Origin: Tetragenococcus halophilus
GTDB lineage: Bacteria; Bacillota; Bacilli; Lactobacillales; Enterococcaceae
Reading direction: 5' to 3'
NCBI RefSeq assembly: GCF_021474685.1
Contig: NZ_JAKEIT010000001.1
Span: forward strand, 187,915-211,914
Length of the DNA: 24,000 nt
Within the stretch, counting starts at the first letter, position 1. The number at the start of each line of letters is the position of its first letter. Below are positions 296 to 22,895 of this stretch, in pieces. The notes below the pieces were generated by a model, which saw only the letters and a list, made by a program, of their open reading frames with translations, had not been told where the DNA came from and did not search any database. The position numbers and the translations under genes are program-made.

Positions 296-2992
296 CTATA
301 TTTTTCCCATCGCACGTTGAACGGCTTTAACAATTTCAACTATTGGGATAATTGCAACAGAAGCGCCTAAAACAATCGCCCATTGATACATATCCAAATG
401 AGCAACTCTAAAGATATCATTTAACCCTGGGACAATGATAATAACCATCATCATCGCAAAGGATAACAAGATCGCCCAATTGAAAGTGTGATTTTTAAAA
501 GGTCCCACTTTGAATAAAGATTGATGGACTGATTTTACGTTAAAAGCATGGAACAATTGCATCAAGCCCAGGGTCGCAAATGCCATCGTCAAAGCATCTT
601 CATGGATAGCATCATAAGTGGCATGGACCGGCCACTGAATGGCGGACCAATAAACAAACAGTACCGAAGCTGCTTCGATGATCCCCTGGTAGATGATACT
701 GCTCATCACACCGCCGGAAAAGAAATTAGACTTTTTACCCCGTGGTTTATGTTTCATCAAATTCTTTTCCGCAGGTTCCATTCCCAAAGCAATCGCCGGG
801 AAGGTATCAGTCACTAGATTAATCCACAATAAGTGAATCGGTAGTAAGGTGTCCCAAGCCATCAAAGTAGAGATAAACAACGTCAATACTTCTCCTAAAT
901 TGGCAGCCATTAGATATTGAATGGCTTTTTGAATATTAGAAAAGACTTTTCGTCCTTCTTCGACTGCAACGACGATCGTCGCAAAATTATCGTCGGCTAA
1001 TACCATATCAGAAGCGCCTTTAGAAACTTCTGTACCAGTAATGCCCATACCAATCCCGATATCAGCTTGCTTCAATGCCGGCGCGTCATTGACCCCATCA
1101 CCTGTCATGCCGACAACTTTGCCTTCTTTTTGCCAAGCACTGACAATACGCACTTTATGCTCTGGAGAAACCCGGGCATAAACCGAATATTTCCCGACAT
1201 TTTGGCTAAATTCTTCATCTGACATTTTATCCAATTGTGCACCTGTCAATACGGCATCATCATCGCCTTCTTCAATGATCCCTAAACGTCCGGCGATCGC
1301 TTCAGCCGTATCTCGGTGGTCTCCTGTAATCATGATTGGACGAATGCCCGCTCCCTTAGCTTCTCTAACAGCTTCTTCTGCTTCAGTGCGTTCTGGATCA
1401 ATCATTCCTACTAAACCAGCAAAAATTAAATCATTTTCAATTGTTTGCGGGTCCAATTTTTCTGGAACTTCGTCAATATATTTATAGGCTGTACCTAATA
1501 CACGTAAAGCTTGTCTTGCCATATTTTGGTTATTGTCAAGTACTGTTTGTTTTTCCTTTTCATCCAGTGCTTTTACTTCACCTGAAAGTAATATTTCATT
1601 GGTGCGTCCTAATAAGACATCAGGTGCGCCTTTGACAGCCACCAAGTATTTGCCATTTTTTAATTGATGGATCGTACTCATCATTTTGCGGTCTGAATCA
1701 AAAGGAATATCTGCCACACGGGGCTCTTCTTGAACGGCTTGACGCACATCAAAATGTTTATTCAAACCAAATTGTACCAAGGCCGTTTCGGTTGGATCCC
1801 CTAATAATTGTTCTTCTTTACCAAACTGTGTATCATTAGCAAAGTTCATAATTTTAAGTGCCATATTATCTTGCGGGATTTCCTCTGAAGCTGCATATTG
1901 ATGATCATCTACATACAGTTTTTCGACCGTCATCTGATTTAGCGTCAATGTTCCTGTTTTATCCGAAGCGATAATATCCGTTGCACCCAGTGTTTCAACT
2001 GCTGGTAATTTTCTGATCATTGAATTACGTTTGGATAATACTTGGGTACCCAAGGCTAAAATAATCGTAACAATCGCCGGTAGTCCTTCTGGAATCGCGG
2101 CAACTGCCAAGGAGATAGATGTTAATAACATATCCACCCAGCCACGGTCATTGAGCCCTGTTCCTACAAAAAACATCACCACCGCAATCGCAATAATCGC
2201 ATAAGTTAAGAATTTCCCTAATTGATTGAGGTTACGTTTTAATGGTGTTTGGGTTTCATCGGCCGAAGCGATCATGCCGGCGATTTTCCCTACTTCTGTG
2301 GACATCCCCGTATTCACTATGACCCCTTTGCCCCGGCCGTAAGTTACATTACTATTGGAATAGGCCATGTTCACACGATCGCCAATACCGATATCTTCGC
2401 CATCCAGCACGCCAGTATGCTTTTCAACAGGAACCGACTCACCTGTGAGGGCGGATTCCTCAATTTTTAACGTACTGGCTTCTAACAGACGCATATCAGC
2501 TGGGACAACATCGCCTGCTTCTAGTAAAATAATGTCCCCCGGTACAAGCTTTTCACTATTGATCGTCACCCGATGACCATTACGTAAAACATTGGCTTCG
2601 GGTGTAGACATTTCTCGTAAGGCCTCGATTGCTTGTTCAGCTTTGGATTCTTGCACAACCCCCATGACAGCGTTAATCACAACAACTGCTAAAATGATGA
2701 TCGCGTCAACCCATTCTCTATGGCCTTCTTCATTGGGAACCACTGCAGAAATAGCTGCGGCTACTAATAGCACAATGATCATAAAGTCTTTGAATTGAGC
2801 AATAAATTTTTGTAAGGTAGACGTCGTTTTGCCCTCTTCTAACTCATTTGTCCCGTATTCTGACAAGCGTTGTTGCGCTTGATCATCTGTAAGTCCTTCT
2901 GCAGTTGTATCAAGCTCATCTAATACTTCCTCAGCATTTTGAGCATAAAAAGCTTGTGCTATTTGAACTTTTTTTTCATTTTCTTCTGGCAT
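296..2992 (-). CDS. PII-type cation-transporting P-type ATPase (Ca2+/Mn2+ class, PacL/YloB/MgtA-like)
   Basis: 898 aa. Motifs: TGES actuator, DKTGTLT phosphorylation site, IPEGLPA ion-site motif in M4, TGDGVNDAPAL hinge, and about 10 hydrophobic segments. GGAGGAG RBS upstream of the ATG. Confidence 0.93.
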   Translation of the reverse strand: MPEENEKKVQIAQAFYAQNAEEVLDELDTTAEGLTDDQAQQRLSEYGTNELEEGKTTSTLQKFIAQFKDFMIIVLLVAAAISAVVPNEEGHREWVDAIIILAVVVINAVMGVVQESKAEQAIEALREMSTPEANVLRNGHRVTINSEKLVPGDIILLEAGDVVPADMRLLEASTLKIEESALTGESVPVEKHTGVLDGEDIGIGDRVNMAYSNSNVTYGRGKGVIVNTGMSTEVGKIAGMIASADETQTPLKRNLNQLGKFLTYAIIAIAVVMFFVGTGLNDRGWVDMLLTSISLAVAAIPEGLPAIVTIILALGTQVLSKRNSMIRKLPAVETLGATDIIASDKTGTLTLNQMTVEKLYVDDHQYAASEEIPQDNMALKIMNFANDTQFGKEEQLLGDPTETALVQFGLNKHFDVRQAVQEEPRVADIPFDSDRKMMSTIHQLKNGKYLVAVKGAPDVLLGRTNEILLSGEVKALDEKEKQTVLDNNQNMARQALRVLGTAYKYIDEVPEKLDPQTIENDLIFAGLVGMIDPERTEAEEAVREAKGAGIRPIMITGDHRDTAEAIAGRLGIIEEGDDDAVLTGAQLDKMSDEEFSQNVGKYSVYARVSPEHKVRIVSAWQKEGKVVGMTGDGVNDAPALKQADIGIGMGITGTEVSKGASDMVLADDNFATIVVAVEEGRKVFSNIQKAIQYLMAANLGEVLTLFISTLMAWDTLLPIHLLWINLVTDTFPAIALGMEPAEKNLMKHKPRGKKSNFFSGGVMSSIIYQGIIEAASVLFVYWSAIQWPVHATYDAIHEDALTMAFATLGLMQLFHAFNVKSVHQSLFKVGPFKNHTFNWAILLSFAMMMVIIIVPGLNDIFRVAHLDMYQWAIVLGASVAIIPIVEIVKAVQRAMGKI

Positions 2993-3386: not shown

Positions 3387-5429
<2,043 letters not shown>

Positions 5430-5576
5430 TCATACTTTTGATAGTATAACATAATTTTACTTGCCTTGTTTTATTTTTTCTATGCTGATTTCCTATTTTC
5501 TTATGATTAAAAAATATTTTTGAGTTAAAAACAACTTTTGCTATAATGTATCTAGTCTAATTTTTAAGGAGATCTT

Positions 5577-5849
5577 ATGACCACAAAACAAAAAAAATCT
5601 GTTATTATCATTTTTATACTTACTATCTTGCATACTGTATTTTGTAACTTTTATACGCAAATCTATGCTTTCATGAATGTACAAAATTGGCTTTCACTAT
5701 TTATAGCCCTTACACTCATTTTACGATTGTTACTATTAATTGCTTTATTTTGGCTAGGTTTGCGCGCAATACAAAAAAATAAAAAGATCGCTTTGTTCTA
5801 TATACTTTTATTTTTCTTTAACTTAGTCATGTCTTTTATTTTTTATTAA
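5577..5849 (+). CDS. Small hydrophobic membrane protein (3 predicted TM segments), unknown function
   Basis: AAGGAG RBS 6 nt upstream of the ATG. TGcTATAAT extended -10 at 5539..5547. 90 aa, strongly hydrophobic. I recognise no family. Confidence 0.5.
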   Translation: MTTKQKKSVIIIFILTILHTVFCNFYTQIYAFMNVQNWLSLFIALTLILRLLLLIALFWLGLRAIQKNKKIALFYILLFFFNLVMSFIFY

Positions 5850-5934
5850 AGTTACTTTTTCATATGCTACAATACTAACGCAATTAACGCAAAACATTAT
5901 AACTGTGTATTTGCTAAAAAAGTGAGGGAAAGCT

Positions 5935-6756
5935 ATGGAATTCTCTTCTAAACAAGAAGAAAAACATTATTACCAGCATATCGCAAGTGAACAAGAGTTT
6001 TTAGCATGGCATAAAAACCAAGACCATCCAATGTATCAAAAACCTTCTGTTACTGTCGATATGGTTTTACTCTGTTATAACAAAGATACCGATCAGATCA
6101 AAGTGTTATTAATCCAGCGGCGCAAAAATCCTTATCGTAATTCTTGGGCTTTACCAGGAGGATTTATGACACCAAATGAATCAACAGACGATAGCGTCAT
6201 TCGTGAAACAAAAGAAGAAACCGGCGTAACTATTTCTGAAAAAAATATCGAACAACTACATACTTTTAGTACACCTGACCGCGACCCGCGAGGTTGGGTG
6301 ATTACCGTTAGCTATTTAGCTTTTATCGGAGAAGCGATACTTTCGGCTGGCGATGATGCAAATCAAGCACGTTGGTTTTCTTTAGAACGTAAAAATAACC
6401 GTCTCTACCTTACAAGCGGCGACACAAAAATTATTCTTGATCTAAAAACCCAAGCATCTTTAGGAGAAGATACCTTGGCATTTGACCACAGTCAAATTAT
6501 CATCAAAGCTTTTAACCGCATTGTAAATAAAATGGATCATGAACCACAAGTCTTGCAAGTTTTGGGGGATACTTTCACAATCACAGAAGCACGGAAGGTT
6601 TTTGCCAAATTTCTAGGCGTAGACTATCACTCCATTGATCATTCAAACTTCAAAAAAAGTTTAATTGGATTTTTAAAGGAAGTAGGAGAACGACCAGCCA
6701 GTATAGGCCGTCCTTCAAAACTTTATCAGTTAAAAGAAAATTTTCGTGAAAAATAA
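5935..6756 (+). CDS. NrtR-like Nudix hydrolase / winged-helix protein (ADP-ribose pyrophosphatase-type)
   Basis: Intact Nudix box GGFMTPNESTDDSVIRETKEETG (Gx5Ex7REx2EExG). N-terminal extension and about 90-aa C-terminal domain laid out as in the NrtR family. GAGGGAAAG RBS. TGcTACAAT extended -10 at 5865..5873. Confidence 0.75.
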   Translation: MEFSSKQEEKHYYQHIASEQEFLAWHKNQDHPMYQKPSVTVDMVLLCYNKDTDQIKVLLIQRRKNPYRNSWALPGGFMTPNESTDDSVIRETKEETGVTISEKNIEQLHTFSTPDRDPRGWVITVSYLAFIGEAILSAGDDANQARWFSLERKNNRLYLTSGDTKIILDLKTQASLGEDTLAFDHSQIIIKAFNRIVNKMDHEPQVLQVLGDTFTITEARKVFAKFLGVDYHSIDHSNFKKSLIGFLKEVGERPASIGRPSKLYQLKENFREK

Positions 6757-6841: not shown

Positions 6842-8203
6842 TTAAAGAACGTGTATTAAACTGGTTGCGATACTGAAATAAAGCATTAAGCCTAAAGCAT
6901 CATTTATTGTGGTAATAAAAGGTCCACTAGCTACAGCTGGATCTACATGCAGCTTATCTGCAATCGCAGGAATAACAGCGCCCACTACAGTAGAAAAAGA
7001 TATAGTAAACCACAAAGAAATGCCAACAATAAATGCTAAAGTTACATTTTGATAAAAAATTGCTATTACTAAAAAGATAACAATCGCCGCGGCAATTCCT
7101 ATTAATATACCAGCACCAAACTCTTTTCTGATCGTCTTCCAAAGACTTTGTTTTTCATCTTTTTCTACATTTAAATTTCGTACAGAAACTGCCAATGACT
7201 GCGTGCCTACATTGCCTGCTGTATCCATCATCACAGGAATAAATGCGGCGAGTAACACAACTGATTCTAATGTTTCTTCAAAAGAACTGATCAATCCACC
7301 ATTAAGCATACCAAGAAAAATCAAAATAACAATCCAAGGTGCACGTTCTTTAGCTGTTTGTAGCGCGCTTTCTTCCTTAGGTTTATCACTGCGACGAATT
7401 GCCGCAATATCTCTAAAGTCTTCTGTAACCTCATTTTCGAGTATATCCATAACATCATCCACGGTAACAATACCTATCATAGTATCATTATCTTCAACCA
7501 CCGGTGCTGCTAATAAATCGTAATCTTGGATTATTCGTGCAACTTCTTCTTGGTCCATGTCAACTGGAACAGAAACCACTTGCCTAGACATAACATTTTG
7601 CATGATTTCATTTTCCGGTGCCAAAATCAAATTACGTAAAGACAAGACGCCCACTAAATCAGCTTGATTATCCAGTACATAAATATAGTAAATTGTTTCT
7701 GCTTTATTTCCTATTTCTCGAAGAAAAGCAATCACTTCGCTTGCTTTTTGATTCTGATTAACTGAAACGAATTCTTTCGTCATTATCGACCCAGCAGTTT
7801 CAAACTGATAGGATAACAACTCTTCTACTCTTAAACGTTTTTTTTCATGCATCAAGCCCAATGGATAACCTTGCTCTATATTAGAAGACTGTTTTAAAAA
7901 CTTCACCACATCATCTGTAGGCATAGTGTTAAATAATTTTGTTAAAAATGCTTTGGGGAAATAATTAACAACATACTCTTGATCTTCAATAGACATCCAT
8001 TCAAAAAGATCTGAAAATTCTTCCGGGGTCAAAAAATTTGCGATCTTTTGTTTTTTTTCGGGATATAATAGATGAAATACCTCATGTTGATCTCGGTCAT
8101 GCAAGCGTAAAAATAACTTACGAAATGATTTACGATCATTTTTCTTTGCAGCGCGATAAATTGCGTCATAGTATTGGTTTTTATTTAACTTAAGTTTTTC
8201 CAT
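6842..8203 (-). CDS. mgtE: Magnesium transporter MgtE
   Basis: 453 aa. MgtE N-domain, tandem CBS region, and C-terminal 5-TM domain with DTAGNVGTQS and PFITTINDALG motifs. GGAGGAAT RBS. Confidence 0.95.
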   Translation of the reverse strand: MEKLKLNKNQYYDAIYRAAKKNDRKSFRKLFLRLHDRDQHEVFHLLYPEKKQKIANFLTPEEFSDLFEWMSIEDQEYVVNYFPKAFLTKLFNTMPTDDVVKFLKQSSNIEQGYPLGLMHEKKRLRVEELLSYQFETAGSIMTKEFVSVNQNQKASEVIAFLREIGNKAETIYYIYVLDNQADLVGVLSLRNLILAPENEIMQNVMSRQVVSVPVDMDQEEVARIIQDYDLLAAPVVEDNDTMIGIVTVDDVMDILENEVTEDFRDIAAIRRSDKPKEESALQTAKERAPWIVILIFLGMLNGGLISSFEETLESVVLLAAFIPVMMDTAGNVGTQSLAVSVRNLNVEKDEKQSLWKTIRKEFGAGILIGIAAAIVIFLVIAIFYQNVTLAFIVGISLWFTISFSTVVGAVIPAIADKLHVDPAVASGPFITTINDALGLMLYFSIATSLIHVL

Positions 8204-8309: not shown

Positions 8310-9065
8310 TCACATAAATCATAACCACCCTTCAAAAGGGTGGTTTGCTCTGGGGCTATAAGCCCCCAATACTAGCCAGCGTCTCAAGGCGCTGGCTTTC
8401 ACTTTGTTCAAGCCACACTGGTTTTGTCGCTTTTGCTACCTCTCAAGAGGTGTTTTTATCACTCTCTAACCCTTAAAAGGGTCTGCATATTCTCGAACAC
8501 TTAGTTTATCTAAGGCCATATCATGTTTTTCTTGCTCTTGAATATATTTCTTGATGGTTGCCTCATTAAGACCCACTGTGCTCACATAATAACCTTCTGC
8601 CCAAAAATGACGATTCCCAAATTTGTACTTCAAATTGGCATGTTTATCAAACATCATCATGGCGCTTTTTCCTTTTAAATACCCCATAAAGCTAGAAATA
8701 CTTATCTTCGGTGGTATACTTACGAGCAAGTGAACATGATCGGGCATCATATGTCCTTCTAGGATTTCTACACCTTTATAACTGCACAATCTTTTGATAA
8801 TCTCTTGTAGACTTGCTCTGTATTGATTATAAACAATTTTTCTTCTATACTTGGGGGTGAATACAATATGGTATTTGCATAACCATTTTGTATGGGCTAA
8901 ACTATTTGCTTTGTTAGCCAACTGAATCTCTTCCTTTCATTACCATGTAGCCTGAACAACTACATTGTAACGCTAGTGAAGAGATTTTTTTAGTATAACT
9001 TTTTCCTTTCCACCCGCATAGCGGGTGGTTTTTTGTTTCGCACGCTACGCGAGCTCAACCCGGTC
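8310..9065 (-). mobile_element. IS200-type insertion sequence (IS200/IS605 family, tnpA only); boundaries approximate
   Basis: A Y1-transposase gene is flanked by subterminal hairpins sharing the AACCACCC arm: CCACCCGC-ATA-GCGGGTGG (9011..9029, left end) and ACCACCCTT-CAAA-AGGGTGGT (8323..8345, right end). Three more hairpins lie at 8350..8450. There are no terminal inverted repeats, as expected for this family. About 750 bp, typical of IS200. Confidence 0.8.
8466..8921 (-). CDS. tnpA: IS200/IS605-family Y1 (HUH) transposase TnpA
   Basis: 151 aa, TTG start. HUH motif PDHVHLLVSIPP. Catalytic-Tyr helix ATIKKYIQEQE. N-terminus AHTKWLCKYHIVFTPKYRRK is typical of IS200 TnpA. Confidence 0.95.
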   Translation of the reverse strand: MANKANSLAHTKWLCKYHIVFTPKYRRKIVYNQYRASLQEIIKRLCSYKGVEILEGHMMPDHVHLLVSIPPKISISSFMGYLKGKSAMMMFDKHANLKYKFGNRHFWAEGYYVSTVGLNEATIKKYIQEQEKHDMALDKLSVREYADPFKG

Positions 9066-9074
9066 TAAAGACTT

Positions 9075-9295
9075 AATAAAAAACACGCTTCTAAGAGCGT
9101 GTTTACCTTACGATATTGTATATATTTGCAAAGCACACCTCTTCGTTGAGTTTTGGCTCAATACAGCCTAGGGATTTAACCCAGCTACGTTAAAAACTCC
9201 TTAGGTCGGACATTTTTGTTAACCACGTTGGCATCTTTCGATATTTCCGGGCAGTAGCATTCCTCTGTATAGTAACCTCACCTAACAGGCTAATT
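9075..9295 (-). promoter_or_regulatory. M-box (ykoK leader) Mg2+ riboswitch with intrinsic terminator
   Basis: The minus strand reads GUUAGGUGAGG..CUACUGCCC..AAAGAUGCCAACGUGGUUAACA..CCUAAGGAGUUUUUAACGUAGCUGG..GGCUGUAUUGAGCCAAAACUCAACGA. This is colinear with the B. subtilis mgtE M-box (GUUAGGUGAGGCU..CUGCUGCCC..AAAGACGCUAAUGGGUCAACAG..AUAAGGUGAUUUUUAAUGCAGCUGG..GCCAUACAGUGCUAAAGCUCUACGA). The terminator is AAACACGCT/AGCGTGTTT (9081..9104) plus a U-run. Confidence 0.9.
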
Positions 9296-9311
9296 TTATT
9301 TTACCGGCCCC

Positions 9312-9391: not shown

Positions 9392-9428
9392 AAAAAAGGC
9401 TGTTTCCTTGTCGTAAAACAGCCTTTTT
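9392..9428. terminator. Bidirectional intrinsic terminator closing the opp-tldR-gRNA transcription unit
   Basis: 8-bp stem GGCTGTTT (9398..9405) / AAACAGCC (9416..9423), flanked by A6 (9392..9397) and T5 (9424..9428). Confidence 0.85.
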
Positions 9429-9618
9429 ATGGTTTTTATAATTAGTGAACAACATTCCTAGAAACAAAAATCTTAAAGATTTTTTCTATACCCTAGGCGA
9501 TCCCTGGCGTTCCTTCCAGTTCCTAACGATTTTAACTACTAGTTATCTGCTGGCCCAACTGCTCAATAGCAAAGCATTTGTCTTCACTTTCTTTTACGTT
9601 AGGAGTAACAAATGCCAG
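9429..9618 (-). ncRNA. Candidate omega-RNA-like guide RNA of the TnpB-derived protein (scaffold overlapping the ORF 3' end plus 3' guide segment)
   Basis: The position matches TnpB omega-RNAs: it starts inside the 3' end of the ORF and runs downstream. TGGTATAAT extended -10 at 9633..9625. Stem GCATTTGT/ACAAATGC (9615..9608 with 9581..9574). Long imperfect hairpin at 9497..9457. Then 28 nt AAUGUUGUUCACUAAUUAUAAAAACCAU (9456..9429), apparently unstructured (no self-complementarity seen by eye), directly before the terminator. No covariance-model or expression evidence is available. Confidence 0.4.
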
Positions 9619-10530
9619 CTGTTTATTATACCAACTTACTTTATACTGTATTTTCTTTAAAAGATGTTGCCAATCAGATTCCGAAAATTTTGCATTTTCA
9701 CTAAATTTCGGTTGCTTTTCTAGATAAATATGATCATAGTCTCTAACCAAATAATAAGTTAATTGATTAATATAATCTTTTTTTTGGTTGCCCATTGTCA
9801 TATGCAATTTCTGGACTTTTCTTTTTTGTTTTTGATAATTTTTTGCCTGACACAATAACACTTTTCTCTTTTTAGCTAACTTTGCTCGAAATTCCAATCT
9901 TTTCTTAGCTTTTTTCAATTGATAGTAAGAATTATCTTTACAGTTAAGAAAAACATCAGTAGATGACATTTGAACTAAGTTTTCAGGGCAATAAGCAATT
10001 CCTATAGACTTGCCTGTTTTTGATAAAGGCACCACGTTTTCTAAGCAAAGAATTGAAACAAAAAACAACTGATTATTTTTAGCTGAAATCGTCGCCGACT
10101 TTATTTCACCTAAAATTTCCCTGTGCAAGTTTACCTTTACTAGAGACTTAAGTTTAGGTAATTTCAATTCTTTTCCGACAAAATAAATCGTATGTTTTTG
10201 ATTATTTGTGGTATAAGATTGCCAACTACTTTTTTTCGATTTCCATTTAGGATAACCCGCTCTTTTACTAAAGTAATTTTTAAACGCTCGATCTAAATTA
10301 CGCTGGGCATTAGCTAAAGCTAGACTATCCGTTTGTTTTAAAAACGGATAGTCTTTTTTTAACTGAGCAGGAGTCATTCGCGTCTCATAATCTCCCTCTT
10401 GTAGGGATTTTTTTCGGGCATACAACAACTGATTATAGGTAAAACGTACACAACCGAAAGTCTGTATAAAATATTGTATTTGTTCTTCATTTGGATAAAT
10501 ACGAAATTTATAAGCTTTTAATACTTTCAC
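9532..10530 (-). CDS. tldR: TnpB (IS605 OrfB)-derived protein, RuvC-inactivated and C-terminally truncated; TldR-like RNA-guided DNA-binding protein candidate
   Basis: The N-terminus MKVLKAYKFRIYPNEEQIQYFIQTFGCVRFTYNQ is the canonical TnpB start. Other conserved blocks: GYPKWKSKK, KLPKL, IKSATIS..FFVSI. At the RuvC-I position the sequence is GIAYC instead of GIDLG (Ala179, GCT at 9996..9994). Glu271 is kept (YLEKQ). The protein ends at 332 aa, just after the KVSWYNKQL block. It has no CxxC..CxxC zinc finger and no RuvC-III Asp. GTG start with AAGGGGGA RBS, 66 nt after oppF, with no terminator in between. Confidence 0.7.
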   Translation of the reverse strand: MKVLKAYKFRIYPNEEQIQYFIQTFGCVRFTYNQLLYARKKSLQEGDYETRMTPAQLKKDYPFLKQTDSLALANAQRNLDRAFKNYFSKRAGYPKWKSKKSSWQSYTTNNQKHTIYFVGKELKLPKLKSLVKVNLHREILGEIKSATISAKNNQLFFVSILCLENVVPLSKTGKSIGIAYCPENLVQMSSTDVFLNCKDNSYYQLKKAKKRLEFRAKLAKKRKVLLCQAKNYQKQKRKVQKLHMTMGNQKKDYINQLTYYLVRDYDHIYLEKQPKFSENAKFSESDWQHLLKKIQYKVSWYNKQLAFVTPNVKESEDKCFAIEQLGQQITSS

Positions 10531-10596
10531 TAGGTCCCCCTTATTTATAAGGTCTTTAAAATAAGTTTGGTCTTCCCACCTGGAGAATAAATAAAT

Positions 10597-11556
10597 TTAG
10601 ACAGCCTGCTTTTTTTTTGCAGCTTTTTTATTTGCAAGTTTTTCTTGGTATTGTGTTTTCTCTTCTTCAGTAGCATAAACATAATGCCCTGACTCAATTT
10701 CTACCATTTCACGTGCTGTATCCGGATTATCTTGTTCTCCTGTATACTTAATACGTGTTCTTGTCTGTTCATACTCTGGATCAGGCATAGGGATAGCCGA
10801 AAGTAAACTTTCAGTGTAAGGATGAACACCATAATAGTAGATATCATCGCTTGTTCCTACTTCTAACAATTTCCCATCATGCATCACACCAATTCGATCA
10901 CTGATATGTTTAACCATGGACAAATCATGGGCAATAAATAAGTAAGTCAAATTATGTTCTTTTTGCAAGTCTTGTAACAAGTTAACTACTTGGGCTTGGA
11001 TAGATACATCCAATGCCGAAATAGGCTCATCACAAATAATAAATCTAGGATCTACTGCTAAAGCGCGCGCAACACCAATCCGTTGCCGCTGTCCTCCAGA
11101 AAATTCGTGCGGATAACGCGTTGCATGATTCGGATTTAACCCCACAGTTCTCAATAGCTCGTCTACTCGTTCATTACGTTCTTTTTCTGATTTTGCCAAG
11201 CTATTAATATCAATACCTTCAGCAATAATATCTTGAACTTTCATTCTTCCATTCAAAGATGCGTAAGGGTCTTGGAAAATCATCTGTACATCACGACGAA
11301 AAGTATTCATCTCTTTTTTTCCATGTAATTTCATTACATCTTTACCGTCAAATTCAACAGTTCCCCCAGTTGCTTGATTCAAACGAATAATCGTACGACC
11401 TGTAGTGGATTTACCACTACCGGACTCTCCCACTAAACCAAATGTCTCGCCTTCATAGATATGGAAAGTAATGTCATCGACTGCTCTAACTTCATTTTTA
11501 CTGCCTTTATTAAAGTATTGTTTTAAGTTTTTTACATCTACTAAAACTTTCTTCAT
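10597..11556 (-). CDS. oppF: Oligopeptide ABC transporter ATP-binding protein OppF
   Basis: Walker A GESGSGKST, signature FSGGQRQR, Walker B FIICDEP, and the oligopeptide/dipeptide C-terminal extension. The start overlaps the oppD stop (ATGA). Confidence 0.9.
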   Translation of the reverse strand: MKKVLVDVKNLKQYFNKGSKNEVRAVDDITFHIYEGETFGLVGESGSGKSTTGRTIIRLNQATGGTVEFDGKDVMKLHGKKEMNTFRRDVQMIFQDPYASLNGRMKVQDIIAEGIDINSLAKSEKERNERVDELLRTVGLNPNHATRYPHEFSGGQRQRIGVARALAVDPRFIICDEPISALDVSIQAQVVNLLQDLQKEHNLTYLFIAHDLSMVKHISDRIGVMHDGKLLEVGTSDDIYYYGVHPYTESLLSAIPMPDPEYEQTRTRIKYTGEQDNPDTAREMVEIESGHYVYATEEEKTQYQEKLANKKAAKKKQAV

Positions 11557-12617
11557 TTACTTTCCTCCGTTTCCGGCTGTTGTTTCTTTTTGAACGCTTC
11601 CCAACGCATCAAAATTTCTTTCGGCGGTTCTACCTTCGGCGCTTGTGGCGCTAATAACCAGGTAGCTGCTTTATGAGTTTTAGATAATTCAAAAAAGGGC
11701 GGTTGTTTTTGGGTATCGATTTTCATCGCATATTCATTTCTAGGATAAAAAGCATCCCCGGTTGGTGGTTCTAACAAATCCGGCGGCGTCCCTGGTATAG
11801 CATATAAACGATCATCTATACCTTCCAAAGTCGGCATAGAACCTAAAAGCCCCCAAGTATATGGATGTTGCGGATTATAAAAGATTTCAGCAGCTGTCCC
11901 GATTTCTACGATTTTACCTGCATACATAACAGCTACACGATCTGCTACATTCGCTACTACTCCCAAATCGTGGGTAATAAAAATAATGGAAGAATTGACT
12001 TTTTGTTGGATATCTTTCAATAACTCTAAGATCTGTGCTTGAATTGTCACATCCAAAGCAGTCGTTGGTTCATCTGCTATTAATATTTCCGGGTAACAAA
12101 TTAAAGCAACTGCAATGACGATCCGTTGACGTTGGCCACCAGAAAATTGATGGGGATAATTCTTTAATCGTTTCTTCGCATTAGGTATCCCTACAAGTTC
12201 TAATAATTCTAAAGCTTTTTGTAAAGCATCTTTTTTCGATACTTTGGTATGTTTTAATAATGATTCAGCGACTTGTTTTCCAATCTTCATTGTTGGATCC
12301 AATGAAGTCATGGGATCTTGGAAAATCATCGAGATATCTTTGCCTCGAATTTTTTGCATTCGTTTTTCCGAATTTTTTAAAATATCTTCATCATTAAATA
12401 AAATTTGGCCATTTTCAACAACTGCATTTTCAGCTAATAGACCCATGATGCTTCGAGTCGTTACTGATTTTCCACTGCCTGATTCACCAACGATTGCTAA
12501 CGTTTCACCTTGATATAAATCAAAACTTACATCACGGATCGCTTGAACCTTTCCAGCATAGGTGGTAAATGAAATTTCTAAATCTTTGACTTCTAAAACT
12601 TTTTTCACCATAATCAC
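11553..12617 (-). CDS. oppD: Oligopeptide ABC transporter ATP-binding protein OppD
   Basis: Walker A GESGSGKSV, signature FSGGQRQR, Walker B ILIADEP, and the HPYTWGLL motif of the OppD C-terminal domain. Overlaps the oppC stop. Confidence 0.9.
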   Translation of the reverse strand: MIMVKKVLEVKDLEISFTTYAGKVQAIRDVSFDLYQGETLAIVGESGSGKSVTTRSIMGLLAENAVVENGQILFNDEDILKNSEKRMQKIRGKDISMIFQDPMTSLDPTMKIGKQVAESLLKHTKVSKKDALQKALELLELVGIPNAKKRLKNYPHQFSGGQRQRIVIAVALICYPEILIADEPTTALDVTIQAQILELLKDIQQKVNSSIIFITHDLGVVANVADRVAVMYAGKIVEIGTAAEIFYNPQHPYTWGLLGSMPTLEGIDDRLYAIPGTPPDLLEPPTGDAFYPRNEYAMKIDTQKQPPFFELSKTHKAATWLLAPQAPKVEPPKEILMRWEAFKKKQQPETEESK

Positions 12618-13657
12618 TCCTTCATCTTCGGATCAAACGCATCTCGTAAGCCATCTGCCAGTAAATTAAATCCAATCATAATGACAGAAAGAACTACTGC
12701 AGGTATAGCCATTTGATAAGGCAAGAATAAGAAAGTCTTATATCCTTCATTGAGCAATGTCCCAAGAGATGCAGTCGGAGGTGTTAATCCAATTCCGATA
12801 AAACTCAAGAAGGCTTCAAAGAAAATGGCTTCTGGAATACTAAACATCATTTGAATAATAATCACACTAGAGATATTAGGTAAAATATGTTTAAAAGCAA
12901 TTTTAGTCCTACTTTCTCCTAAAGTTGTTGCCGCTAAAACAAATTCCTGATCTTTTAATTTAAGTGTCTGGGCTCGAGCAATCCTGGCCATCGGTATCCA
13001 ATTGGTAATGGCCATTGCCGCAACAATTGAGAAAATCCCAGGATTAAACACTACTAACATCAAAATCATTACAACAAGGTTAGGAATTCCGGCTAAAACT
13101 TCGATGACTCGCTGCATATAGTTATCCACTCTGCCACCTAATAGACCCGAAATGACGCCATAACTGACCCCGAAGAGAATATCTAGCGCTGCTGCAATAA
13201 AAGCGATCATTAATGAAATTCGTACACCCATAAATAAACGGCTTAATAAATCACGCCCTAGACCATCTGTTCCTAAATAAAAATGAACATCTTCTGGTAC
13301 ATCAGCAGCTTCATAACGATCCACCATTTCTCCGCCAACTTCAGATACCCCATTTAAACCATTAATGTCAATTCCGGGTATCTTAGGCGGTAAATTAATA
13401 TAACTAGAATTTTGCTCGGTTGGATCATGCGGTGTAGCAAAGATAGTTACGACTGATATGAGCAGCACAATGATAAGAAAAATAGAAGAAAAAACAGCCG
13501 CTTTATTTTTCTTTAGCCGACGCCATGAATCTTGTAAAAAATTTAGCGAAGGGGCTGTAATAGCTTCACGTTCCACTTTAGTACTTTTTTCTAAAGGCTC
13601 AAATTCAGAAGCTGGAATTTGTGTGATTTGGTCATTTGTATAATTTTTATCTTCCAT
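12614..13657 (-). CDS. oppC: Oligopeptide ABC transporter permease OppC
   Basis: 347 aa. N-terminal OppC-type extension and 6-TM BPD-transporter core. 1-nt overlap with oppB. Confidence 0.88.
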   Translation of the reverse strand: MEDKNYTNDQITQIPASEFEPLEKSTKVEREAITAPSLNFLQDSWRRLKKNKAAVFSSIFLIIVLLISVVTIFATPHDPTEQNSSYINLPPKIPGIDINGLNGVSEVGGEMVDRYEAADVPEDVHFYLGTDGLGRDLLSRLFMGVRISLMIAFIAAALDILFGVSYGVISGLLGGRVDNYMQRVIEVLAGIPNLVVMILMLVVFNPGIFSIVAAMAITNWIPMARIARAQTLKLKDQEFVLAATTLGESRTKIAFKHILPNISSVIIIQMMFSIPEAIFFEAFLSFIGIGLTPPTASLGTLLNEGYKTFLFLPYQMAIPAVVLSVIMIGFNLLADGLRDAFDPKMKE

Positions 13658-14598
13658 TATCCACGACTCCCTTCTGAAATACGGATACGAGGATCAACAA
13701 TACCATATAATACGTCAACAACAAAGATAATCGACACTAACATCGTAGAATAAAGAATAGTTACTGCCATGATTGTCGGATAATCATTGGTCATAATTGA
13801 TTTAACAAATTGCTCTCCAATACCTGGTATAGCAAAAATATTTTCAACAACAAGTGATCCAGTCATTAGCGCAACTGCTAATGGTCCTAGTAAAGTCAAA
13901 ATTGGGATCAAGCTATTACGTAAACCGTGTTTAAACGCTCTCTCCCAGCGACTTAGACCTTTTGATTTCGCTAGTTCAACTTGATCACTATGTAACACTT
14001 CGACCATTTCAGTACGTATAAAACGAGCTGAATCCGCTAGCGGTGACATTGCTAGTGCTAAAGTAGGTAAGATCGTATAGGCAAAACTATCCCATCTTGC
14101 AATCGGTAGAATTTCTAATTTAATCGCAAATACGTATTGCAATAATACAGCAAACACAAAGTTAGGAATAGAACGTCCTAAAATAGCAACCAAGGTACTT
14201 AAAGTATCCACCCAAGTATTTTGCTTCATTGCAGAAATCGTTCCTAAAACAATTCCAAAGATCGTTCCAAGTCCAATGGCTTGAATCCCTAATTGAAGGG
14301 ATGGACCAATACGTCCACCTAATAAACTAGATACAGCTTGGTTTTTAAATTGGAAAGAAATCCCAAAGTCACCTTGCATAATATTTACCAAATACTCTCC
14401 ATATTGTACGATCATCGGTTGATCTAGTCCCATTTGTTCATTTAATAAGGCAATTTGTTCTGGACTTAATCTTTCAGCGTTAGTATAAGGTGTTCCTGGC
14501 AAAAACTGCATCATGAAAAACGTGATGGTTGCAATCAACCACAATGTAATTGCCATGAAAAACACACGTTGCAATAAATATTTTATAAAATCGTTCAC
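13657..14598 (-). CDS. oppB: Oligopeptide ABC transporter permease OppB
   Basis: 313 aa. GTG start behind an AGGAGG RBS. Typical OppB/DppB permease, ending IVDPRIR. Confidence 0.88.
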   Translation of the reverse strand: MNDFIKYLLQRVFFMAITLWLIATITFFMMQFLPGTPYTNAERLSPEQIALLNEQMGLDQPMIVQYGEYLVNIMQGDFGISFQFKNQAVSSLLGGRIGPSLQLGIQAIGLGTIFGIVLGTISAMKQNTWVDTLSTLVAILGRSIPNFVFAVLLQYVFAIKLEILPIARWDSFAYTILPTLALAMSPLADSARFIRTEMVEVLHSDQVELAKSKGLSRWERAFKHGLRNSLIPILTLLGPLAVALMTGSLVVENIFAIPGIGEQFVKSIMTNDYPTIMAVTILYSTMLVSIIFVVDVLYGIVDPRIRISEGSRG

Positions 14599-15097: not shown

Positions 15098-16762
15098 CTA
15101 TTCGTCGATAGTTACCCATTTGTAATCATACTGTGCACCTGTAGGATGGGTGACAAGACCGTTTACACGATCTGCTCTTAAGTGTGCTTCAGCATTTTGA
15201 TACAATGGAACTACCCCTTGTTCTTCCATAATGATATTTTCAGCTTCTACCAAATTATCCCAACGTGCTTCAGGATCATTGGCATTTTCATTCGTTGCTT
15301 CATCAATTTGTTGATCGTAATCTTCATTACTGTAATGCCCATGGTTATTTGACGTATCCGTTTGGAATAAGTCAAGGAAAGCACTTGGATCAGCATAGTC
15401 AGCACCCCAGCCACTTAGAGCCATGTCAAAATCTCCAGAAGTTGAACGATCTAAACGAACAGAAAAAGGTACCGGACTTAATGAAACACTTACTCCATCC
15501 AAGCTATCTTGAATAGATTCTTGTAAGAACTCTTGCGCTCTTCTAGAATTATCCGTATCATCTGCCAATAGATCTATTTCTAACGAATCTTCACCTAGTT
15601 CTTCTTGGGCTTGTTCCCAATACTCTTGCGCTTGTTCTTGATCATATTCTATCTGGCTACCTGCATCTTCAGTGAAATCATCTCCGGTTTCTGGATTTTC
15701 ACTCATATCACTTGGTACTAAGCCAGAAGGTTCAATCGAACCGTCAGCTAAAACGGAGTTAACTAAAGCTTCACGATCAATAGAGTAAGAAATCGCTTTA
15801 CGGAAGTTTTCGTTTGCAAATGGTGAATCTTCATCCTCTTGATTCATCTCCATATAGAAGGTAGATGCTTGAGGAACTGTGAGATAATCAGGATCATTGG
15901 CCATTTGCTGTGCAAGTTCGCCACTTAATGTAATCTCATCTGCTTGCCCATCTTGGAATAAGTTCAAAGCAGTTGAAGCTTCTTTAACAACATTCACATT
16001 CACTCGATCTAAAGAAACATTGTCTGCATCCCAGTAATCTTCATTTTTATCATAAGCCCATTCAGTATCTGATCCAGGACCGTCAAAATCAGCTAAAACA
16101 AATGGACCATTGTAAACCATATTATCACTTGTCTGTGCGTAATCATCGCCATTTTCTTCTACGACTTCTTCATTTTGCGGGAAGAAGACTGGAAAGGCCA
16201 ATAAATTGTCAAAATATTCTGTCGGCCTTTCTAAGGTAATTTCCAATTCATATTCATCAGTGGCTTCAATTCCTAGTTCATCCAGATCTGCATCGCCGTC
16301 CATTACAGCTTGCGCGTTTTCAACCGGTTCATAAATATACGCAAACTCTGAAGCTGTTTCTGGATCAACCGTACGTTGCCAACCATAAACATAATCATCA
16401 GCTGTTACTGGATCACCATTTGACCAAGTTGCGTCTTCGCGCAATTGAACAGTATAGGTTAACCCGTCCTCTGAGACTTCTGCTTCTTCGGCAGCACCAG
16501 CTGGTTGAGGTTCATCATTTTCATCTAAACGATACATCCCTTCATAAACATTGTTTAAGGCCGAAAAACTAACTGTATCTGTAGCCTGTGATAAATCCGC
16601 TGTTGGCATTTCCTGTCTTTCAATAAAAGTATACTCATTTCCTGAAGTACCAGAAGCACCTTCGCCCCCACCTTCACTTGAATCTTGTGTTTGTCCTGTC
16701 GTACAACCAGCAAGTACCAAGGAACACACCGCAAATAAACTATAAACATATTTCTTTTTCAC
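15098..16762 (-). CDS. oppA: Oligopeptide-binding lipoprotein OppA (ABC family-5 substrate-binding protein)
   Basis: I place the start at GTG 16762..16760 behind AAAGGAG, not at the track's 16804. This gives VKKKYVYSLFAVCSLVLAGC with lipobox LAGC. The mature protein is about 530 aa and very acidic, with the family-5 SBP layout. Confidence 0.88.
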   Translation of the reverse strand: MKKKYVYSLFAVCSLVLAGCTTGQTQDSSEGGGEGASGTSGNEYTFIERQEMPTADLSQATDTVSFSALNNVYEGMYRLDENDEPQPAGAAEEAEVSEDGLTYTVQLREDATWSNGDPVTADDYVYGWQRTVDPETASEFAYIYEPVENAQAVMDGDADLDELGIEATDEYELEITLERPTEYFDNLLAFPVFFPQNEEVVEENGDDYAQTSDNMVYNGPFVLADFDGPGSDTEWAYDKNEDYWDADNVSLDRVNVNVVKEASTALNLFQDGQADEITLSGELAQQMANDPDYLTVPQASTFYMEMNQEDEDSPFANENFRKAISYSIDREALVNSVLADGSIEPSGLVPSDMSENPETGDDFTEDAGSQIEYDQEQAQEYWEQAQEELGEDSLEIDLLADDTDNSRRAQEFLQESIQDSLDGVSVSLSPVPFSVRLDRSTSGDFDMALSGWGADYADPSAFLDLFQTDTSNNHGHYSNEDYDQQIDEATNENANDPEARWDNLVEAENIIMEEQGVVPLYQNAEAHLRADRVNGLVTHPTGAQYDYKWVTIDE

Positions 16763-16923
16763 ACCACTTGCTCCTTTTTTATTGGAAATTTTCAGAATTA
16801 TCACCTTTTTCTGAAGTTATATAAGATTGTAATTATTAATTATTAAAAAAGCAAGAGAAAATTGAAAATAAAATAAGGAAATACTTATCATTTATTTGAA
16901 AAGCGCTATTTATCAGCTTTTTT

Positions 16924-22519: not shown

Positions 22520-22666
22520 TTTAAAATAAAAATATCCTCTGGTTTTACCCAGAGGACGCAAAAATACGTGGTTCCACCCCAATTTATCTTTTCCTCACAG
22601 AAAAGACCTCAGTAAGTTATCAATCGAAAAATAAAAACGTCCTTTAGCCAAACGGCTAAAGGACGT
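22520..22666 (-). promoter_or_regulatory. First terminator plus a second, partial T-box module (stem III, T-box sequence, second terminator; no stem I)
   Basis: Terminator 1 is ACGTCCTTTAGCC/GGCTAAAGGACGT (22637..22666) plus a U-run. A repeat of the upstream 3' half follows: UUGAUAACUUACUGAG, hairpin UCUUUUC-UGUGAG-GAAAAGA, T-box sequence UUGGGGUGGAACCACG (22580..22566), and terminator TCCTCTGG/CCAGAGGA (22535..22556) plus a U-run. Confidence 0.7.
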
Positions 22667-22895
22667 AAATTACGCGGTTCCACCTTTATTTATTCATTCT
22701 TTACAGAATAAAACTCAGTAAGTCATCAATCAATAACTTTGGCTATAACGGGCTGCCCGGACTTTTCTACTTCATTCAAAAAGACGACTCCAAGATGTGG
22801 TTCACCATAATTTTATTGTTTCTTCTCACCAGACAGAAACTCTCTTAAAACAAAACTAAAGTTACTCTTCTTGTTCGATGTCATTTATTTAAGTT
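22667..22895 (-). promoter_or_regulatory. T-box riboswitch leader (complete unit), probable His (CAC) specifier
   Basis: Minus strand: AGAGUA, the AAGAGAG bulge, and the distal loop UUUCU-GUCUGGUGAGA-AGAAA. Specifier-loop 3' side is GGUGAAC-CAC-A-U before the closing CUUG (CAC at 22799..22797). Stem III is AUUCU-GUAA-AGAAU. T-box sequence AAAGGUGGAACCGCG (22687..22673). The terminator at 22637..22666 lies just downstream on the minus strand, outside these coordinates. Confidence 0.85.

Follow-up and report, generated by a model that had tools for sequence, protein, structure and literature searches.

The open reading frame (ORF) at 9532..10530 on the minus strand of a 24,000-nucleotide (nt) stretch of DNA from Tetragenococcus halophilus (GCF_021474685.1, contig NZ_JAKEIT010000001.1; hereafter the window) is, with a probability that we put at about 0.87, tldR, the gene for a TnpB-like nuclease-dead repressor (TldR), i.e. 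a domesticated TnpB that is predicted to bind DNA under the guidance of RNA, without cleaving it, and to be directed at oppA. Every feature by which the oppF-associated TldR clade is defined at the sequence level is present. Membership in this clade is argued for by the TnpB fold, the broken catalytic triad, the truncated C-terminus, the position after oppF, the scaffold of a guide RNA (gRNA), and a site in which a target-adjacent motif (TAM) is followed by the seed of the guide. As to the hallmarks of an active IS200/IS605 TnpB nuclease, we found neither an intact D-E-D triad nor a zinc finger, nor a position within a mobile element. The initial annotation of this DNA had proposed a TldR-type protein from the ORF and its neighbourhood, and the gRNA scaffold, the guide and the TAM-seed site in the oppA promoter, none of which it contained, bear that proposal out.

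The product of tldR comprises 332 amino acids (aa), starts with GTG, and is identical to WP_234771384.1 of T. halophilus. Its Pfam matches are HTH_OrfB_IS605 (PF12323, 3e-17) and OrfB_IS605 (PF01385, 2.5e-9), with no match to OrfB_Zn_ribbon (PF07282), which is the result that had been anticipated for a profile search when the ORF was first read as a 332-codon TnpB/IS605-OrfB homolog. Among the solved structures, its best sequence match (HMMER against the PDB) is ISDra2 TnpB (E 7e-30), of which residues 7-330 out of 408 align with residues 5-315 of the tldR protein. In the RuvC-I column of this alignment GVDVG, with the catalytic D191, corresponds to GIAYC, in which codon 179 is GCT (Ala, 9996..9994), and in the RuvC-II column IGTE, with E278, corresponds to IYLE, in which E271 is encoded by GAA (9720..9718); nothing is aligned to the zinc finger of ISDra2 TnpB or to its RuvC-III residue D361, the alignment ending before both. 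The six cysteines of the tldR protein (27, 162, 181, 197, 227, 320) form no CxxC motif; the tnpA-linked relatives are 364-392 aa long and mostly contain two CxxC motifs, near residues 320 and 340. Both the codons and the alignment therefore agree with the earlier statement that E271 is the only remaining member of the triad and that the zinc finger and RuvC-III are missing, the triad being mapped here by sequence alignments (with ISDra2 TnpB and Efa1TldR).

The AlphaFold (AF2) model of the protein, built from an input alignment of 72 sequences, has a pLDDT of 93, and its top fold match in the PDB, according to Foldseek, is the ternary complex of ISDra2 TnpB (8h1j, TM score 0.76). It shares 71% identity with TosTldR and 42% (E 5e-74) with Efa1TldR, the sequence of which was taken from the supplementary table of Wiegand et al. 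2023 (10.1101/2023.11.30.569447); another sequence, P0026, was dropped as the E. faecalis reference because its residues did not agree with the published numbering. The residues S74, L75, N79, Q81, N114, Q116, L167, Y307 and W311 of Efa1TldR make contacts to the TAM and to the RNA-DNA heteroduplex (Xiao et al. 2026, 10.64898/2026.09.22.753285). They map to S69, L70, N74, Q76, N109, Q111, L161, Y296 and W300 in the window, and these nine positions show little or no variation among the 72 homologs, which supports the retention of the TTTAA TAM.

The gRNA scaffold, delimited by a covariance model and by alignments, extends from the last codons of tldR to ...GTTCAC (~9445..9548, minus strand) and holds a stem CTGG/CCAG, an outer stem CCTAG/CTAGG and a hairpin AAAAATCT-TTA-AGATTTTT. 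It is followed by the guide TAATTATAAAA (9434..9444, minus strand), which we display as 11 nt, the published TldR homologs having guides of 9-16 nt. The start of the guide was placed with the help of the invariant junction between scaffold and guide: the loci of Tetragenococcus and Enterococcus share a conserved sequence directly after the stop codon of tldR (...AACTGGAAGGAACGCCAGGGATCGCCTAGGGTATAGAAAAAATCTTTAAGATTTTTGTTTCTAGGAATGTTGTTCAC / TAATTATAAAAACC..., with the slash at the junction), and the junction itself, ...TCAC/TAATTAT, exhibits no variation in 26 loci. The three helices, which were specified by hand, are 88% paired in the alignment, with compensatory changes in 8 of the 17 pairs, a number reached by none of 500 shuffles, while slid controls scored much lower. 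The covariance model R1, for which 24 other species were used while the window and T. halophilus were left out, matched 9434..9548 on the minus strand at 104.6 bits (E 7e-21), and this was its sole significant match in the window. At the gathering thresholds Rfam yielded no family at the gRNA, its only hits in the window being an M-box and a T-box. Folding of the single sequence was uninformative (z = -0.26), so the support for the structure comes from covariation only. The E. faecium/durans/mundtii group (L019, L028, L030, L032, L036, L039, L054, L059, L061) possesses an extra hairpin of 15-25 nt, TTTTCTTT...AAAGAAAA, between ...CTAGGAA and GCTCAC of the gRNA, which is absent from Tetragenococcus, including the window.

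The predicted regulated gene is oppA (15098..16762, minus strand), which codes for an SBP_bac_5 lipoprotein and probably starts with the GTG at 16762, after the ribosome-binding site (RBS) AAGGAG. Its predicted promoter (16826..16854, minus strand) consists of a -35 element TTGCTT (16854..16849), a 17-bp spacer and a -10 element TACAAT (16831..16826). On the sense strand of oppA the sequence reads TTGCTT-T-TTTAA-TAATTAATAAT-TACAAT, so that the spacer is filled by the TAM 5'-TTTAA-3' (16843..16847), known from Efa1TldR, and by the predicted target TAATTAATAAT (16832..16842), which was recognized by comparison with the guide; both lie on the minus strand of the window. As the criterion for a site we used the TTTAA TAM together with a perfect 6-nt seed (Xiao et al. 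2026), rather than the target string TAATTATTT given in the methods of that work, which equals none of the guides that we have seen. Positions 1-6 of the guide, i.e. the seed, match the target at 6/6 and the whole guide at 8/11. The combination of TAM and seed (TTTAATAATTA, 16847..16837) occurs once in the 24-kb window compared to 0.19 expected occurrences, and the layout of -35, TTTAA-TAATTA and -10 recurs in ~38 Enterococcaceae loci of different species. The CRISPRi-like control postulated in the initial annotation thus acquires a predicted address, which is specifically the oppA promoter and not, as had been supposed, the peptide-transport genes in general.

Two further motifs, ATAATTCTGAAAATT and AACTTCAGAAAA, are located in the 5' leader of oppA (~16787..16801 and ~16807..16818, minus strand), just downstream of the -10 element, and are conserved in most of the TldR-associated oppA leaders. 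They resemble the CodY box, the consensus of which we take to be AATTTTCWGAAAATT. Conventional regulation of oppA by nutrients is probable as well.

The genes oppB (13657..14598), oppC (12614..13657), oppD (11553..12617) and oppF (10597..11556), identified from the ORF list and Pfam, form a block on the minus strand (10597..14598), in which neighbouring stops and starts overlap, as expected from the translational coupling that had been claimed for them. Between oppA and oppB lies an antisense DUF3899 gene (PF13038; 14688..15023, plus strand), a conserved part of the opp locus described by Xiao et al. 2026. The stop of oppF at 10597 leaves a spacer of 66 nt to tldR (10531..10596, minus strand), in which a terminator scan restricted to loops of 3-8 nt found no terminator-like site on the minus strand, in agreement with the earlier description of tldR as the last cistron. 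The RBS AAGGGGGA is indeed present at the 3' end of this spacer (10542..10535), at a distance of 4 nt from the GTG and not of 6 nt as stated initially. The transcript of oppBCDF, tldR and the gRNA would end at the intrinsic terminator at 9392..9428 (minus strand), correctly noted before, which begins a few bases past the guide and consists of a stem GGCTGTTT/AAACAGCC (9423..9416 with 9405..9398), a 10-nt loop and a T6 tract (9397..9392); with such a loop it was missed by the scanner, the loops of which were limited to 3-8 nt.

In a scan of one genome per species we recovered 80 loci, ~40 of which have the genes oppA, DUF3899 (antisense) and oppBCDF immediately upstream of the TldR homolog. With one exception, these ~40 loci have an intact opp-associated ORF (311-367 aa), and the intact orthologs at the same position in ~38 species span 41-88% identity. 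The position of tldR is thus the same across species, with no cognate tnpA (no explicit search was made for left and right transposon ends). There is one copy of tldR in the window and one locus per T. halophilus representative genome. The proteins of the flanking genes are 97-99% identical to those of T. halophilus subsp. flandriensis (locus L001). The ratio of nonsynonymous to synonymous substitution rates (dN/dS) of tldR is 0.12 and 0.16 relative to L001 and to T. halophilus subsp. halophilus DSM 20339 (L002), respectively, which indicates that tldR is under purifying selection, though a more relaxed one than its neighbours. The checks of synteny and selection suggested in the initial annotation favour a TldR, and the oppF-associated clade, which it rightly placed in Enterococcus, extends also to Tetragenococcus.

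The scan revealed additional TldR-like genes. Truncated homologs of ~305-310 aa, 47-54% identical and devoid of CxxC, are found in Enterococcus away from this opp operon, and a second TldR-like group follows a different ATP-binding cassette (ABC) transporter, with OppD, OppF and OppA being 55%, 48% and 27% identical, respectively (the loci with TldR-like homologs elsewhere are L021, L024, L026, L033-L035, L044, L045 and L065, and L018, L022, L025, L037 and L046). In some cases (E. lemanii, E. eurekensis, E. alcedinis, E. dispar) a genome has two TldR-like genes.

For the function of this locus we favour the published scenario, in which gRNA binding, cleavage-free DNA binding and repression by the T. 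halophilus protein are inferred from what has been demonstrated for its homologs (Efa1TldR and others). The tldR gene would be transcribed as the last cistron of oppBCDF, on a transcript running into the ~100-nt scaffold and the short guide before it terminates. TldR would bind the scaffold-plus-guide RNA from its own 3' end, and the complex would recognize the TTTAA TAM and pair its seed (TAAUUA...) with the template strand within the 17-bp spacer of the oppA promoter, ~6.3 kb upstream within the same locus. The short RNA-DNA heteroduplex in the spacer would then occlude RNA polymerase and lower the expression of oppA while oppBCDF stays on, since the latter has separate transcription signals (Xiao et al. 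2026). A lower level of oppA might make the permease available to other OppA paralogs.

Several observations weigh against the presence of a working oppA repressor of this kind in T. halophilus. The guide pairs with the target over 6 contiguous nt (8/11 overall) compared to 9 bp in the solved Efa1 complex, and no Tetragenococcus locus has a match at position 7. The target is a near-palindrome (TTTAATAATTATTAAA in many species), the opposite strand of which pairs with the guide at 11/12 in the window but behind ATTAT, a non-canonical TAM, and hence it is not certain which strand is targeted. The dN/dS of tldR exceeds the values of 0.005-0.07 calculated for the opp genes and mgtE with respect to L001 and L002. 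In another lineage of T. halophilus, represented by the same contig in at least 20 samples, tldR is frameshifted: in locus L083 (GCA_037911195.1, JBBLWA010000078.1, 2782..3779) the loss of a single nucleotide adjacent to an A7 run (window ~10407) splits the gene into ORFs of 48 and 284 aa and leaves the gRNA intact, from which it follows that tldR is dispensable in at least some strains. Finally, deletion of the native tldR-gRNA in E. faecalis gave no de-repression of oppA, and repression required overexpression (Xiao et al. 2026). The initial annotation had regarded frameshifts together with neutral evolution of the orthologs as the sign of a pseudogene; the former were found in the conspecific lineage, but evolution with a dN/dS of 0.12-0.16 is not neutral.

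Disrupted loci were also seen elsewhere. Among the opp-associated orthologs of the ~40 species representatives, the only clear truncation is that of E. innesii GAL7 (L052, 10001..10681), where the tldR ORF stops after 226 aa. Other T. halophilus assemblies encode truncated products of 121, 130 and 95 aa with different break points (P0124, P0122 and P0129, respectively). Compared with the window, the type strain L002 contains an insertion of ~1.66 kb (395..2055), which precedes the oppA promoter by ~100 nt, and another one of ~1.5 kb (4561..6084) in the 5' part of oppB, so that its TldR-associated opp operon appears to be disrupted.

It is tempting to read some of these facts as a sign that the TldR-oppA circuit is drifting or being rewired in Tetragenococcus, as would be suggested by the bare 6-nt seed, the 11/12 pairing of the opposite strand behind ATTAT, the evolution of tldR, which is fast relative to its operon, and the widespread lineage with the 1-nt deletion. 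We regard this as unlikely; if true, the preference for the TAM or for the strand might have shifted, or RNA-guided control of oppA might be on in some strains and off in others of a bacterium of fermentations.

It is less likely still that TldR and its gRNA are functional but the palindrome in front of oppA serves mainly as the operator of a protein, so that the real targets of the guide lie elsewhere or its role is not repressive. The palindromic character of TTTAATAATTATTAAA is indeed reminiscent of protein operators, CodY-like boxes are found just downstream, the pairing in the window is only seed-deep, removal of the native tldR-gRNA from E. faecalis was without effect, and further candidate targets have been reported in E. 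cecorum (Wiegand et al. 2023). However, the TAM-seed combination, unique in the window, is positioned precisely over the oppA promoter in almost all of the loci, and oppA was the most strongly repressed gene upon overexpression in E. faecalis (Xiao et al. 2026).

Nor do we give much credence, and in fact slightly less, to the possibility that the ORF is a decaying pseudogene of an IS605-family tnpB that came to lie after oppF by chance and has no function. Such a fate would account for the loss of the catalytic residues and of the C-terminus, for a dN/dS that is several-fold to ~30-fold above that of the opp genes, for the frameshifted copies in conspecific strains and for the truncation to 226 aa in E. 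innesii. However, a decaying gene is not expected to exhibit a dN/dS far below 1, or to persist as an intact ORF of 311-367 aa at the same position in ~38 species that have diverged to 41-88% identity, and it is equally difficult to reconcile with an RNA scaffold kept by compensatory changes, with the conservation of both the guide and its promoter target, with invariant functional residues and with the experimentally demonstrated activity of homologs.

Least credible of all is the idea that the ORF serves as tnpB in an IS200/IS605 element that is still active, with the Y1 transposase gene at 8466..8921 as its partner. This gene is intact (Y1_Tnp, E 2e-41) and lies on the same minus strand 610 nt downstream of tldR. 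However, the T. halophilus loci L001 and L002, which are otherwise collinear with the window, lack the segment 8318..9070 around it, and between it and tldR there are a terminator and an M-box riboswitch. In true tnpA-tnpB relatives, tnpA immediately precedes tnpB, and the TnpA encoded there shares no more than 26-29% identity with the one in the window. Moreover, the nuclease triad and the zinc finger are missing, and tldR is present in a single copy in the window.

The absence of 8318..9070 from L001 and L002 led us to reject this tnpA, which had not been noticed in the initial annotation, as the partner of tldR, and to regard it as part of a separate, strain-specific IS200-type insertion. 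The 753-bp element, which has a hairpin CCACCCGC-ATA-GCGGGTGG close to its upstream end, separates an M-box (ykoK) Mg2+ riboswitch (9131..9296, minus strand, 125.6 bits), followed by a terminator-like hairpin (9104..9081), from the downstream gene of the Mg2+ transporter mgtE (6842..8203, minus strand), and may uncouple mgtE from riboswitch control in this strain. The other RNA found by Rfam, a T-box leader at 22656..22887 (minus strand, 121.8 bits), is unrelated to tldR.

The system that we describe as TldR is already known, having been published between 2023 and 2026, and its recognition in the window, although correct, is not a discovery. The oppF-associated clade, its TAM, its short guides and its oppA target were reported by Wiegand et al. 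2023, who used RNA and chromatin immunoprecipitation sequencing (RIP-seq, ChIP-seq) together with interference and reporter assays to demonstrate RNA binding, DNA binding without cleavage and repression by TldR homologs. T. solitarius, T. koreensis and T. halophilus subsp. flandriensis BSUG01000004.1 are all contained in their full dataset, and the last of these is the record recovered here as L001, so that the species itself is already in the catalogue. The best studied relative, Efa1TldR of E. faecalis V583, represses oppA ~40-fold on overexpression, according to RNA sequencing, and its structure, solved by cryo-electron microscopy, contains the 9-bp heteroduplex (Xiao et al. 2026). It shares with the T. 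halophilus gene the oppA-DUF3899(antisense)-oppBCDF-tldR-gRNA locus, the broken RuvC triad, the truncated C-terminus, the conserved TAM-contact residues, the end of the scaffold (...TCAC), the start of the guide (TAATTAT) and the TTTAA-flanked target upstream of oppA. On the other hand, it has 356 aa and a triad of C/E/E, compared to 332 aa and A/E/none in the window, and the target in E. faecalis lies downstream of the transcription start, whereas here it overlaps with the spacer of the promoter, as has been described for E. faecium.

The closer relative TosTldR (T. osmophilus JCM 31126, WP_123935583.1) comes from the same genus and has the same A/E/none triad; it differs in species and in a C-terminus that is 11 aa shorter. 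Its guide is TAATTATAAAG..., compared to TAATTATAAAA... here, and the predicted guide in the dataset of Wiegand et al. 2023 is TAATTATAAAGAACC.... TosTldR appears in the table of representatives cloned and tested in that work, the main text of which describes no result for it. With ISDra2 TnpB (8h1j, 8exa, 8bf8) the tldR protein shares the fold and the WED/REC/RuvC order, along with an RNA (omega-RNA in ISDra2) at the 3' end of the gene and a TAM 5' of the target. In contrast, ISDra2 TnpB retains nuclease activity, with D191/E278/D361, a zinc finger and a 16-nt guide, and is encoded by a mobile IS that also contains tnpA and has transposon ends. The fliC_P-associated TldRs of Enterobacteriaceae prophages are likewise nuclease-dead TnpBs, domesticated independently, that repress a host promoter by means of a gRNA. 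They represent another clade, however, which is prophage-borne, targets the host fliC with a guide of ~16 nt and is associated with a gene for a replacement flagellin.

TldRs illustrate how RNA-guided nucleases encoded by transposons have been domesticated into programmable transcription factors outside CRISPR, a phenomenon that has already been published and tested. To this the window adds a fully annotated case from T. halophilus, with the protein, the guide RNA, the TAM, the target and the promoter. The residual value of this case lies in the seed-only pairing, in the ambiguity of the targeted strand and in the natural loss-of-function alleles within the species, and the naturally frameshifted conspecific strains could provide a ready comparison for the physiological role of oppA repression.

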